From a virus (Duplodnaviria > Caudoviricetes): a DNA stretch of 43,868 nucleotides. Position 1 is the first letter of the stretch; every line of letters begins with the position of its first letter. This document shows, piece after piece, positions 4,614-43,592 of this stretch. The DNA is taken from positions 1-43,868 of IMG/VR virus record IMGVR_UViG_3300046061_000025. The stretch is one strand, 5' to 3'. Under the pieces are notes generated by a model. That model searched no databases. It was not told where the DNA came from and saw only the letters and a program-made list of their open reading frames with translations. Both the position numbers and the translations under genes were made by a program.

Positions 4614-4991
4614 TCAGTCGCCTCCGCCACGGGTCGTGGCTCGCTGCCCCGCCGACCGATCAGGCGGGTGGGGGTAGTGGTCGCGAACGAGGTCGGGGAG
4701 GCGGTCCCAGTGCTCGTCGGCGACGCGACGCAGCTGGCCGGCCGCGCCGGCGCCGGCGGGCTCCACTTCGAGGTATGTAACTTGGGCCCACCGCCACTCG
4801 GGGAGCAGCCCACTGTCGCCGGTCCATTCGGTGAAGTGGAGTGCGCCGGCATCCCTGAGTTCGACGTCGGCATAGGAGGCCTGCGAGATGGAGTCGCGTT
4901 GGTCGACTTCGTGGACAAGGGCGGGCGTGTAGTCCGCGTTGAGGGCTCGCGGGTCGTGCTCGAGGCCCGGGTCGTCGGCGTCGTCCGTCAT
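4614..4991 (-). CDS. Hypothetical protein
   Basis: ATGA overlap start MTDDADDPGLEH; acidic. Confidence 0.65.
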   Translation of the reverse strand: MTDDADDPGLEHDPRALNADYTPALVHEVDQRDSISQASYADVELRDAGALHFTEWTGDSGLLPEWRWAQVTYLEVEPAGAGAAGQLRRVADEHWDRLPDLVRDHYPHPPDRSAGQRATTRGGGD

Positions 4992-5113
4992 TCGCCGTCG
5001 CTCCCAGTGGTGCTGCGGTTGTATTTGCGGCGCTGGAGTTCCGATGGCTCGAGGTCGTCGATGAGGTCTTGGAGCGTCGTGGTGTCGTCGGTGTCGCGTT
5101 GGTCCGTAATCAT
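4988..5113 (-). CDS. 41-aa microprotein (not in ORF track)
   Basis: MITDQRDTDDTTTLQDLIDDLEPSELQRRKYNRSTTGSDGE; ATGA overlaps at both ends. Confidence 0.6.
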   Translation of the reverse strand: MITDQRDTDDTTTLQDLIDDLEPSELQRRKYNRSTTGSDGE

Positions 5114-5589
5114 GCCAGGTTGTCACCTGTGGCATCCTCACGCTGGCTGGCGTGGTGACGGCCATGTTCAGCGGGTGTCATTAGTTCCAGATTATCGATG
5201 CGGTTGTCCCACGGAATCTCATTCACGTGGTGAACGTGCTTCCCGCGGGTGGCGTCGATGCCGAGTTCGGCAACCGCCTGGAGCCGGTGAACGAATACGT
5301 CTCGACATGTCGGGTGGTCGTGAACCCGCCACACCATGTACCCTGAGTCGTTGATACGAAGCGCACACCCGGCACGGTGATACTGTCCTCGGGCCGTATT
5401 CTTTCCGTGCGTGATTACGTCAAGTCCCGCAGCTCGTTTCGCATCATTCCAGCTGCCAAATTTCTTCGCGAGCGTCCGGTCACTCGGAGTATAATCACCT
5501 TCTCGGTACTCCCTTACAAAGAGCGGTTCTCCGAACTCCTGGGCCGCCGCTTGAAGCTCCTCTATACACTCTTGTTTTGTATATTCCAT
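5110..5589 (-). CDS. HNH endonuclease with an N-terminal homing-endonuclease-associated repeat
   Basis: N-terminal YT..ECIE.LQ.AA...PS..T...KFGSWNDAKRAAGL; C-terminal VHRL...VHHVNEIPWDNRIDNLELMT..EH...H. Confidence 0.88.
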   Translation of the reverse strand: MEYTKQECIEELQAAAQEFGEPLFVREYREGDYTPSDRTLAKKFGSWNDAKRAAGLDVITHGKNTARGQYHRAGCALRINDSGYMVWRVHDHPTCRDVFVHRLQAVAELGIDATRGKHVHHVNEIPWDNRIDNLELMTPAEHGRHHASQREDATGDNLA

Positions 5590-5599
5590 AATTGAATTA

Positions 5600-5739
5600 G
5601 GGCCTCGCCGCGATTCGAACGCGGACGGCGCAGCCAGCCGTGCCAATGTCAGCTCGTAATGGGGGTGTACCGATGAGCCGTGACCCCAAGGTCGGGGGTC
5701 GGGTGGTCGGTAGGTGGTGGCTGCGAGTTGTGCGAGGCC
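5600..5739 (-). ncRNA. tRNA-like structured RNA (acceptor stem + T-arm, no D-arm, ~85-nt structured insert)
   Basis: GGCCTCG/CGAGGCC 7-bp acceptor; CCGCG-TTCGAAT-CGCGG T-arm; CGCAGCCA/TGGCTGCG 8-bp stem; internal hairpins GACCCC/GGGGTC and GCTC/GAGC. Confidence 0.7.
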
Positions 5740-5803
5740 GTGGGTAGGGGTGGGCCGGTCACACTGTTGGATGGAGCGTGTTCTGGGGGTGTGGCGGCCC
5801 GAG

Positions 5804-5848
5804 GGCTCCGCCGGGGCTTGCACCCGGTTCCAGCACTCTGCCGGAGCG
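5804..5848 (-). ncRNA. Minimal tRNA-like element (t-element): acceptor stem + T-arm
   Basis: GCTCCG/CGGAGC stem, small CAG-AGTG-CTG hairpin, CCGGG-TGCAAGC-CCCGG T-arm. Confidence 0.55.
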
Positions 5849-5880: not shown

Positions 5881-6039
5881 TCAGGCATTGCTGGTTTGGG
5901 GGTGGGGCTGTTGGTCGTCAAGGTCAAGGTCGAAACGGGTTTCGAAGAAGTCGTCCCAGGTTTCGGTCCGCTCTTTACGGTCGTGGAGAGCGTCGGCTAT
6001 TTCCTGGCTGACTGTGATGCTGGTGTAGCGGTCGTCCAT
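5881..6039 (-). CDS. Small ribbon-helix-helix-like DNA-binding protein, first gene of the leftward operon (not in ORF track)
   Basis: MDDRYTSITVSQEIADALHDRKERTETWDDFFE: beta-strand then helices; TATA-like box upstream. Confidence 0.7.
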   Translation of the reverse strand: MDDRYTSITVSQEIADALHDRKERTETWDDFFETRFDLDLDDQQPHPQTSNA

Positions 6040-6135
6040 GTCTTACGATGCGATGAGTTAATCGCAATGTAATTAAGTCTTTTGTCAGCTAACCAACTAT
6101 GGCAAACCATTAAATAATTGCATTACAAATGGTCA
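6040..6135. promoter_or_regulatory. Divergent archaeal promoters (putative lysis/lysogeny switch)
   Basis: AT-rich gap; minus-strand CAAAAG-ACTTAATTA and plus-strand CAAA-CCATTAAATA BRE/TATA-like elements facing opposite genes. Confidence 0.7.
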
Positions 6136-6327
6136 ATGGACATGAGCACCCTCACCCAACCACAGATGGCCAAGCAGATCACGTTCCGCATCGACGACGA
6201 CCTCGAACATCGCCTCGAAACCTACATGGCCAGCGACAAACACCAATTCCAACCCAACCAGAGCGACGTCATGCGCGTCGCCCTTGACGAGTTTCTCCCT
6301 GAAACGGCGAGCCATAACAACGACTAA
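6136..6327 (+). CDS. CopG/RHH transcriptional regulator 1
   Basis: KQITFRIDDDLEHRLE...NQSDVMRVALDEFL RHH pattern. Confidence 0.85.
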   Translation: MDMSTLTQPQMAKQITFRIDDDLEHRLETYMASDKHQFQPNQSDVMRVALDEFLPETASHNND

Positions 6328-6371
6328 TAATTTTGTTACACCACACACGTACGTCATGTTAAGCAACATAA

Positions 6372-6394
6372 TTTTATGTATTGCGGCGCAATAC
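6372..6394 (+). promoter_or_regulatory. TATA box followed by a 17-bp palindrome GTATTGCG-G-CGCAATAC (putative operator)
   Basis: TTTTATG at 6372; palindrome 6378-6394; ATG at 6402. Confidence 0.7.
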
Positions 6395-6401
6395 CACCGA
6401 C

Positions 6402-6557
6402 ATGGCAATGCATCTATCCGTCCGCATTGACGACGATCTCGAAGAAAGACTCCACGCGTACATCACCGACGACCGCCATGTATTTGAACCCAACAAAAGC
6501 GACGTCGTCCGCGGGGCCATCGACGAATACCTCCCCGAAGACACCGATACCGCCTAA
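6402..6557 (+). CDS. CopG/RHH transcriptional regulator 2, paralog of 6136..6327 (not in ORF track)
   Basis: MAMHLSVRIDDDLEERLHAYITDDRHVFEPNKSDVVRGAIDEYLPEDTDTA. Confidence 0.85.
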   Translation: MAMHLSVRIDDDLEERLHAYITDDRHVFEPNKSDVVRGAIDEYLPEDTDTA

Positions 6558-6697
6558 ACCGGGATCGGCGAAAACGACGTCACCTCAACCATCCCACACC
6601 GCGTACACTCAAGCTCCATCTCCGCAGAACTATACACCGTCGCGTTCACCGCCGTCGACTCACACTCCGGACAATGACTCCACTCTGTCAACGCCAT
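6554..6697 (-). CDS. Small Zn-ribbon protein (CPEC...CTRCG)
   Basis: Start at MALTEWSHCPECE; TATA-like ATACTTAC ~25 nt upstream. Confidence 0.65.
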   Translation of the reverse strand: MALTEWSHCPECESTAVNATVYSSAEMELECTRCGMVEVTSFSPIPV

Positions 6698-6883
6698 ACA
6701 CCACCCCACTCGGGGACACGGTAAGTATCGAACCGACCCGGTTCCGGAAACCACAACATCCGGGTCAGTCAGCGAAAGGACCACTGCGAGACGCCCGTCT
6801 GACAATTCGGAAACCACCGGCCCCACGGAAGCCACGAACCCACCCCACCAACCCTACATCACGCCCGTCCCCACGAACCAGGT

Positions 6884-42207: not shown

Positions 42208-42276
42208 GCCGATGCACCCCCGGGAGAACAGCGCGATCGTGGACTAATCGCTGTTGGCTTTGAACATTTGGGTGCA

Positions 42277-42298
42277 AGCCGGTGGAGGGATTTGAACC
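42277..42298 (-). other. attP core resembling a tRNA 3' end (probably tRNA-Thr)
   Basis: Minus strand GGTTCAAATCCCTCCACCGGCT = T-loop, 3' T-stem, acceptor CACCGGC and U discriminator; no 5' half present; 50 nt upstream of the integrase. Confidence 0.8.
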
Positions 42299-42347
42299 AA
42301 ACGTTCACAGCCAAACCTATTTCCACCGGGGCTGTAAGACCACCAGC

Positions 42348-43592
42348 ATGGTCACCGACGTCGACGAGATCGAGACCCTCCGAACCCGCCTCCACAACGG
42401 CGAGATCGCCGCAGACGACCGCGAGCTGATCGAGCAGTTCGATACGCGGCTGGAGCGCCGGCGCCCGCAATCGCTCTCGGCGGCGCGGCACAAGAAGCTC
42501 CTCCGGTCGGTCATCCTCATCGCGGAACGCCACGGCCAGCTCGCCGACGCGCTCGAGAACCGCGAGGCCGCCGAAGCCGTCAAGGACTGGATCGACGCCG
42601 AATACGACAACGAGGAGTCCAACCGAGATATGCGCGCGATCCTGAATCGGTTCGCCGGCCTCGTCACCGGACCTCCCGAAGATGACGACCCACCAGAGTC
42701 CGTGGCGTGGATTCCGACAACGTACTCGAACAGTTATGATCCGACGCCGGATCCGCGAGAGATCCTCGTGTGGGAGGACGATGTCGCGCCGATGCTCGAC
42801 GCTGCGCAGAACCTTCGGGATCGGGCGTTGATAGGGGTCGCGTTCGACGGTGGGTTTCGTGGGGGCGAACTCAAAGCGCTCGAACGGCGGGACTGTCAGG
42901 ACCACGACCACGGCCTCCAGGTCACCGTCGAGGGCAAGCAGGGTCGGCGGAGCGTCCTGCTCGTCCCCGCGGTCGAGTACCTCACCGACTGGCTCGCCGA
43001 ACACCCCGGCAACGATGGCACGGATCCGCTCTGGAGCAAGCTCGGCCGCCCGGAACGGGTCTCCGATCGGATGTTCTACAAGATCCTGGAGTCGGCGGCC
43101 GACCGCGCCGGTGTCGATAAGCCGGTGACGCCGACGAATTTCCGGAAGTCGAGTGCGGCCTACCTCGCTCGGCGGAACGTCAACCAGGCACACATCGAGG
43201 ACCATCACGGGTGGGTTCGGGGGTCGGATGCGGCGGCGCGGTACATCCAGGTGTTCGGTGAGGACACCGATCGCGAGATCGCTAAGGCGCACGGCGTTGA
43301 GGTGGAGGCTGGGGAGGAGCTGGTGACGCCGGCGGCCCGGGGGTGTCCGCGGTGTGGCGCTGTCGTCGAGCCGCACCGGTCGTTCTGCGCCGAGTGCAAT
43401 CAGGCGGTCGACCGCGAGGCGCATGCCGTCATCCAGCGCGCGATGGACATCCTCGACGACTCCCTCGTCGAAGCCGATGACGCAGAGACGCGGGATCAAC
43501 TCGTCACGACGCGACGGAAGTTCCGGGAGACCCCGGACGATTTCGACATGGACGCCGTTCATGAGTTGGTGTCCTCCGTTGATTCGAGGTAG
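42348..43592 (+). CDS. int: Tyrosine integrase (haloarchaeal SNJ2-like type) with C-terminal Zn ribbon
   Basis: GGFRGGEL (R), EGKQG (K), NFRKS, HHGW, AARY (Y); CPRCG...CAEC; start moved to ATG 42348. Confidence 0.93.
   Translation: MVTDVDEIETLRTRLHNGEIAADDRELIEQFDTRLERRRPQSLSAARHKKLLRSVILIAERHGQLADALENREAAEAVKDWIDAEYDNEESNRDMRAILNRFAGLVTGPPEDDDPPESVAWIPTTYSNSYDPTPDPREILVWEDDVAPMLDAAQNLRDRALIGVAFDGGFRGGELKALERRDCQDHDHGLQVTVEGKQGRRSVLLVPAVEYLTDWLAEHPGNDGTDPLWSKLGRPERVSDRMFYKILESAADRAGVDKPVTPTNFRKSSAAYLARRNVNQAHIEDHHGWVRGSDAAARYIQVFGEDTDREIAKAHGVEVEAGEELVTPAARGCPRCGAVVEPHRSFCAECNQAVDREAHAVIQRAMDILDDSLVEADDAETRDQLVTTRRKFRETPDDFDMDAVHELVSSVDSR

Follow-up and report, generated by a model that had tools for sequence, protein, structure and literature searches.

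The window, by which we mean the whole stretch of DNA that was analysed, is a complete virus record of 43.9 kb. Its major capsid protein shares 79% identity with the counterpart in Haloarcula hispanica tailed virus 1 (HHTV-1). An integrase ORF was found at positions 42282-43592, and at its 5' end lies an att-like core of 23 nt (42276-42298, minus strand), which corresponds to the 3' end of host tRNA-Thr(CGT): the identity is complete in 2 of 5 genomes, and the other 3 match it over 22-26 nt. Because the integrase lies beside this copy of a tRNA 3' end, the virus is probably temperate; from its sequence it is probably an HHTV-1-related halovirus. A halite metagenome run in which it occurs may be where it came from.

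The cassette of interest is located 3' of the first ORF in a leftward early operon, which is divergent from two small repressor-like ORFs recognized by eye. One other virus (locus L003 of genome G001, hereafter the relative) was found to carry the identical order of elements after its copy of the 52-aa gene. The features of the region are as follows.

6070..6083, minus strand: BRE/TATA-like sequence, picked out by eye, putative early promoter; region 93% identical in the relative
5881..6039, minus strand: first early ORF, 52 aa, no Pfam or NCBIfam family; 88% identical in the relative
5804..5847, minus strand: element i, minimal t-element with a 6-bp acceptor, a short inner hairpin, a T-arm with non-canonical loop, and discriminator 5804
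5752..5800, minus strand: element ii, stem-loop with a replaceable C-rich loop and no tRNA features; z = -2.81
5740..5751, minus strand: C-rich linker, part of an 18-nt stretch (5757-5740) that does not differ in the relative
5600..5739, minus strand: element iii, D-armless tRNA-like structure (5739-5601) with discriminator C5600
5110..5589, minus strand: HNH_repeat + HNH_3 endonuclease, 159 aa, a variable insertion immediately 3' of element iii
4988..5113, minus strand: 41-aa ORF, to which the N-terminus of the ORF following element iii in the relative is weakly similar (36%, E 6e-4)

The 52-aa ORF and its counterpart end with the residues NA or DA. A 6-bp inverted repeat (6066-6061 / 6054-6049) was noticed over the likely early start site as a possible operator, and this repeat (6066-6049) and the two small divergent repressor-like ORFs (6133-6560) form a probable immunity switch. 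At 6560-6880, inside the rightward transcript, a strongly skewed region (G/T-rich on the minus strand, ∼81% identical in the relative) was observed, within which the minus strand holds a Cys-rich 47-aa ORF. A 249-codon open frame spanning the cassette was rejected as a gene on account of indels in the relative's sequence there and of the HNH start at 5589.

An earlier note on this DNA had claimed three consecutive minus-strand structures between the 52-aa ORF and the HNH gene and had regarded them as an array of tRNA mimics. All three structures were present at the positions claimed. The mimicry was strong for element iii and weak for element i, but element ii, because it has no T-arm, is not a tRNA mimic; with the linker it forms a 64-nt piece (5803-5740) between the two t-elements. 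The anatomy of a t-element, that is, an acceptor stacked on a T-arm with the T-loop consensus, was found in full in element iii and with a 6-bp stem and deviant loop in element i. In agreement with the note, element iii has a perfect acceptor (7/7 Watson-Crick pairs), a canonical T-arm, and neither D-arm nor anticodon loop: a 7-nt joiner replaces the D-arm, the variable loop is 4 nt, and an 8-bp stem with an insert of ∼80 nt occupies the anticodon position. The discriminator was confirmed to be separated from the HNH ATG (5589) by 10 nt. The fold z-score of element iii was -3.79, with none of 200 shuffles as stable, and it was calculated that a T-arm with a 7/7 acceptor is expected 0.03 times per shuffled genome. 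Formation of a 5-bp hairpin (5641-5625, minus strand) would preclude the 8-bp stem of element iii, and the alternation might act as a switch.

Element i, described earlier as a mini-tRNA, does possess an acceptor stem and a T-arm, but only 6 bp are formed (5847-5842 with 5810-5805, 5848/5804 being a C-C mismatch), the T-loop is non-canonical, and the element is weak when taken alone. Its fold was unremarkable compared with shuffles (z = 0.12), the pair probability of its T-stem in the whole-cassette equilibrium ensemble was 0.07, and its match to the Rfam mascRNA model was sub-threshold (22.3 bits against a gathering score of 42.5, E 0.066). Support for element i comes from this match and from the canonical T-arm at the matching place in the relative. 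The entire 291-nt region folded no better than shuffles (z = -1.25). Two T-arm plus acceptor elements within 300 nt were found in none of 100 shuffled genomes.

The tRNA and RNA-family searches proposed earlier gave no ARAGORN tRNA in the window and no Rfam match at gathering level. No ordinary or intron-containing tRNA was called by ARAGORN on local slices, by default or with introns, and relaxed thresholds on the cassette yielded mispaired models only. One long-intron Arg call overlapping the relative's element was obtained in a 3-kb slice; it was not reproduced on re-run. At normal thresholds ARAGORN and Rfam reported nothing relevant in five host loci and the relative. The 18-mer of the T-arm is present in many ordinary tRNA-Arg/Pro genes, and the ends of element iii are one compensatory pair apart from those of an archaeal tRNA-Arg. 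An 11-nt match between the T-arm of element i and the att region was at chance level. Being D-armless, and having a long stem where the anticodon arm would be, element iii resembles the tRNA-like domain of tmRNA. A tmRNA was ruled out by pair 3-70, which is C-G and not G3-U70, by the lack of a tag ORF in the insert, and by the lack of an ARAGORN tmRNA call.

In the relative, the flanking DNA was 93% identical and the interiors of all three elements were replaced, while the outer stem of element ii, the 18-nt linker and both ends of element iii were retained. The acceptor strands stay paired across 96-120 nt in both viruses, and the gap from the discriminator to the downstream ATG is 10 nt in the window and 15 nt in the relative. 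Element i of the relative has a canonical T-loop and one compensatory T-stem pair compared with the window; its acceptor pairs only with a bulge. The 8-bp stem of element iii differs by one compensatory pair between the two viruses, and the mutually exclusive 5-bp hairpin also shows one compensatory change, thus two folds are possible for element iii. The viral covariation comprises two to three compensatory changes between two full sequences. Whole-cassette equilibrium folding of the relative did not favour the tRNA-like folds (pair probability 0.0). An identical 13-mer was observed in loop ii of the window (5781-5769, minus strand) and in the insert of element iii of the relative (L003:3334-3346); as read from the two sequences, its relocation suggests modular shuffling or a shared ligand.

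Variant contigs from three further runs of one study (X2-X4) span 5601-5820 with at most 20 differences. Beyond the window and the relative, additional pattern scans gave no further full copy of the cassette. Among deposited phages, BLAST with the cassette region gave a single 27-nt chance match; a descriptor scan of HHTV-1 revealed no comparable tandem cassette; the cassette was absent from the HerA-linked viral loci L007-L011; and a query with the downstream 124-aa protein added no locus. In a broad viral T-arm pattern scan (30 of 64 parts), 97 of 120 matches fell inside ARAGORN tRNAs and the other 23 were unlike the cassette. The matches from genome contigs (6 of 64 parts, the pattern being too common) were mostly tRNAs, and none of 17 metagenome matches was homologous.

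The HNH gene has a GC content of 56%, compared with 64% in its surroundings. In the relative a different ORF directly follows element iii in place of the HNH gene, and the record of G001, which is incomplete, yielded no HNH homologue. In two contigs the DNA 3' of element iii was joined differently: in X3, position 5102 was joined to 5601 with 13 other letters between them (102 letters on the short side), and in X2, position 5079 was joined to 5601 (29 letters). Because the gene is absent from the relative and the joints in X2 and X3 lie at the 3' end of element iii, it is a variable insertion at that place, and the cassette is independent of it. The HNH gene is likely a passenger, and the 41-aa ORF is, to judge from the weak similarity given above, probably the gene next to element iii in HNH-less alleles. 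An HNH-associated RNA system, for which an obligate linkage of RNA and HNH gene was looked for, was rejected because the linkage is broken in the relative, X2 and X3.

It was found that the host lineage carries a widespread element of like anatomy. When the cassette was compared by BLAST with 401 Halobacteria genomes, 40 of them showed weak matches, and at 13 of 30 inspected loci a T-arm and acceptor lay immediately 5' of one small gene. This gene was present in 110 of 201 genomes with a single-protein query and in 238 of 401 Halobacteria with a profile, and the clustered proteins were named from at least 16 genera; the protein belongs to no Pfam or NCBIfam family. Seventy host loci were then chosen with no criterion other than protein similarity, 30 from the top of the ranking and 40 from further down. 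At 59 of these a strict T-arm was found with the acceptor end 2, 3 or 5 nt before the ATG, compared with 4 of 3071 control ATG triplets; 6 others had a variant loop by eye, and 5 had no element at that place. A perfect 6-bp acceptor partner within 140 nt was detected for 50 of 64 host elements, compared with 13% of shuffled or foreign strands. In 34 aligned host elements, two-sided changes were observed in 10 of 12 pairs (0 of 500 shuffles), a figure inflated by the selection itself, since 5' strands were picked for their ability to pair and every element had to show four T-stem pairs. The inner regions varied among loci: some had a short hairpin, some a canonical D-arm without anticodon arm, and some two long stems. 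Among 13 further weaker matches, 5 had the element at +2/+3, 4 followed a tRNA-like gene by 12-51 nt, 2 followed one by 109 nt, and 2 had neither.

Upstream of the element, a uORF of 25-80 aa was found in 63 of the 70 loci. At 50 loci it ended in AA, TA, VA or AV with varied stop codons, compared with 5 of 123 ordinary ORFs; the AA end is ssrA-like. The modelled host protein adopts a ferredoxin-like fold (pLDDT 91). Its likeness to EF-1beta was non-significant (HHalign probability 35%, Foldseek E ∼0.02), the S6, NikR and ACT folds scored nearly as well, and 5 of 5 genomes have a separate gene for canonical EF-1beta. Several further observations were made at the host loci (L156-L262, L407-L419). 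The module runs in the order Ala-ending uORF, whose stop codon lies in a stem-loop, covarying t-element and, 2-5 nt 3' of the latter, a gene for the ferredoxin-fold protein of ∼100 aa; an example is L258:1264-1894. The elements at L206, L214, L215, L218, L220 and L229 combine a canonical D-arm with the lack of an anticodon arm and begin the T-loop with A, and L405 has a second tRNA-like element just 3' of the gene. The gene family was also found after accessory tRNA arrays (L400, L401, L403, L408, L410, L416), some tRNAs of which terminate 2-3 nt 5' of an ATG, and Ro60/TROVE-like and RtcB-like genes were recognized by eye near those arrays. The host module of uORF, t-element and ferredoxin-fold gene is apparently undescribed.

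For one host locus, published RNA data could be consulted. L252/L258 encode a protein identical to H. salinarum AAG19660.1; judged by the gene's length (342 nt), its strand and the order of its neighbours, the latter was taken to be VNG1318H. The tables of a dRNA-seq study of this organism list a TEX-sensitive processed 5' end, TPS_3951_1, at 984227 with p = 0 (PMC8303175 Tables S1/S3). This position is one base before the start codon of VNG1318H, directly after the discriminator, where the product of tRNase Z is predicted to begin. The -27 region of VNG1318H is a GC-rich T-arm with no TATA box. In the same tables the site has a positional uncertainty of 17 and is one of 14 candidates within 320 nt, 7 of which pass the filter, and TPS sites cluster near start codons genome-wide in H. 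salinarum (PMC8303175). At the predicted RNase P position, 984176/7, these tables contain no significant site. At one host locus, published data thus support a processed 5' end where tRNase Z is expected to cut.

The question was whether the viral cassette belongs to the host family. A host-trained covariance model run on 153 kb of viral DNA matched only element iii of both viruses and element i of the relative (22.5-27.6 bits, ordinary tRNAs scoring 21.7-43.4) and missed element i of the window. Over 61 genomes it gave 10 matches, all adjoining the host gene and mostly training sequences. The placement in the viruses also differed from that in the host: the host family has one element, a gap of 2-5 nt, an Ala-ending uORF and a fixed downstream gene, whereas the viruses have two elements, a gap of 10-15 nt, different and variable downstream genes, and no Ala-Ala-type uORF. 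On the other side, anatomy and placement before a start codon are shared, and the T-stem and inner acceptor are near-identical in Halorubrum- and Haloarchaeobius-type loci. Because of the tRNA-level model scores, the missing uORF signature and the loose spacing, the viral element is better said to work like the host element than to be a member of its family. We infer that the viral cassette may descend from the host family.

On balance we lean slightly towards tRNA punctuation, in which the elements of the cassette serve as signals for cutting the early transcript and small RNAs are set free. The predicted cuts by host tRNase Z lie 3' of 5804 and 5600, and those by RNase P, if it acts, at 5847 and 5739. 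The cut at element iii would leave the mRNA of the downstream early operon with a new 5' end and a leader of 10 nt, and that at element i would create the free 5' end of the 64-nt middle RNA; the RNase P cuts would complete the release of small RNAs of about 44, 64 and 140 nt. The earlier note had already proposed processing signals, and this part of it has gained ground: the layout is kept in the relative, the host family covaries, and one host processed end coincides with the site predicted for tRNase Z. The viral RNA would be cleaved in this way, with a presumed effect on its translation or stability. Against the punctuation reading count the small viral sample with its few compensatory changes, the tRNA-level scores on the host-trained model, the longer viral gap to the ATG, the low pair probabilities in the relative and in element i of the window, and the ambiguities of the host TPS. 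Also against it, further Haloferax t-elements were reportedly predicted by Hoelzle et al. in 2012, selected ones being uncleaved in vitro. In its favour, engineered cassettes of t-element, RNA and t-element are processed in Haloferax in vivo (PMC4326828). A broader scheme is conceivable but doubtful as a whole: the host loci would form a translation-control module in which an Ala-ending leader peptide, a tRNA mimic removed by tRNase Z to leave a leaderless mRNA, and an EF-1beta-fold protein couple expression to the tRNA-processing/translation status, and the virus would have doubled the RNA part, using it as a gate for the early operon and as a means to release cargo RNAs.

It is unlikely that the tRNA-like RNAs themselves are the main product, acting in trans by decoying tRNA-directed defences or by binding translation or RNA-repair factors, with mRNA processing as a by-product. 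Such a role would suit the occurrence of the host gene family after accessory tRNA arrays near the Ro60/TROVE-like and RtcB-like genes, the ferredoxin-like fold of the host protein with EF-1beta among its top non-significant matches, and the perfect 7-bp acceptor, which would permit CCA addition; bacterial YrlA RNAs, too, mimic tRNA and are cleavable by RNase P (PMC4201824). However, an anticodon loop that could serve as bait for anticodon nucleases is missing, the inserts differ between the two viruses, and the tight spacing of 2-5 nt to the host ATG points to a role in cis. The elements might also be functionless at present, either as tRNA genes in decay or as ends captured from a tRNA such as tRNA-Arg. 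The 18-mer shared with tRNA-Arg/Pro genes, the single compensatory pair between the ends of element iii and an archaeal tRNA-Arg, and the scores of ordinary tRNAs on the host model, as high as those of the viral elements, are consistent with this, as are the recombination of temperate viruses at tRNA 3' ends and the insertion of the HNH gene at the 3' end of element iii. We consider decay decidedly unlikely, given that the acceptor strands remain paired despite replacement of the interior, that the tandem order is retained, that the att-like core of the virus corresponds to a different tRNA, Thr(CGT), 36 kb away, and that ARAGORN at relaxed thresholds produced mispaired models only.

A source of processed antisense immunity RNAs like P1 C4 / P4 CI, whose specificity would be set by the variable loops, was judged very unlikely. 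The location of the cassette within the first early transcript, next to small divergent repressor-like genes, and the shift of the 13-mer from loop ii of the window to the insert of element iii in the relative would agree with it, and the C4 precursor is an RNase P substrate (title of a paper cited in PMC11143913), but neither the 13-mer nor the conserved linker has a complementary target above shuffle level in the two viral genomes. It is hardly credible that the HNH endonuclease uses the RNAs as dedicated guides or, as the earlier note had suggested, as partners. Adjacency is the one point in favour of this idea; the gene is replaced in the relative and missing from population alleles whose joint coincides with the 3' end of element iii, and the HNH_repeat + HNH_3 architecture is common, with unlinked relatives in other haloviruses.

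The tRNA-punctuation reading, if true, would make tRNA processing a route to leaderless mRNAs in archaea. The host element could be tested directly in H. salinarum (VNG1318H), and the viral cassette would be a natural template for compact RNA-release cassettes. Neither the viral tandem t-element cassette nor the host family was described in the literature searched, in which subscription journals were thinly covered, and the host family is not in Rfam. In the same literature, archaeal tRNA-like processing signals were documented only for the 5S rRNA leader and engineered cassettes.

Structured viral RNAs that host tRNA-processing enzymes cut from early transcripts are known from the P1 C4 and P4 CI antisense RNAs and from the stable tRNA-like species 1 and 2 RNAs of T4. 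The viral cassette differs from these in that no antisense target was found in the two genomes and in that its host is archaeal. Small tRNA-like processing signals within longer transcripts are also represented by mascRNA/menRNA (Rfam RF01684) and plant mitochondrial t-elements; mascRNA/menRNA is eukaryotic, and the match of element i, far below the gathering score, implies no homology. The Y RNA YrlA resembles the viral elements in its tRNA mimicry (PMC4201824), but no Ro60 gene was seen beside the viral cassette. A further likeness in anatomy is to the t-element upstream of Haloferax 5S rRNA and to the elements of the engineered t-element/crRNA/t-element construct, which consist of acceptor and T-arm with no full cloverleaf (PMC4326828); there, the 5' end of the RNA that follows is generated by tRNase Z, and a pair of elements can free the RNA between them. 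In comparison, the viral cassette is natural and tandem, lies before protein genes, carries large variable inserts, and has its cleavage predicted.
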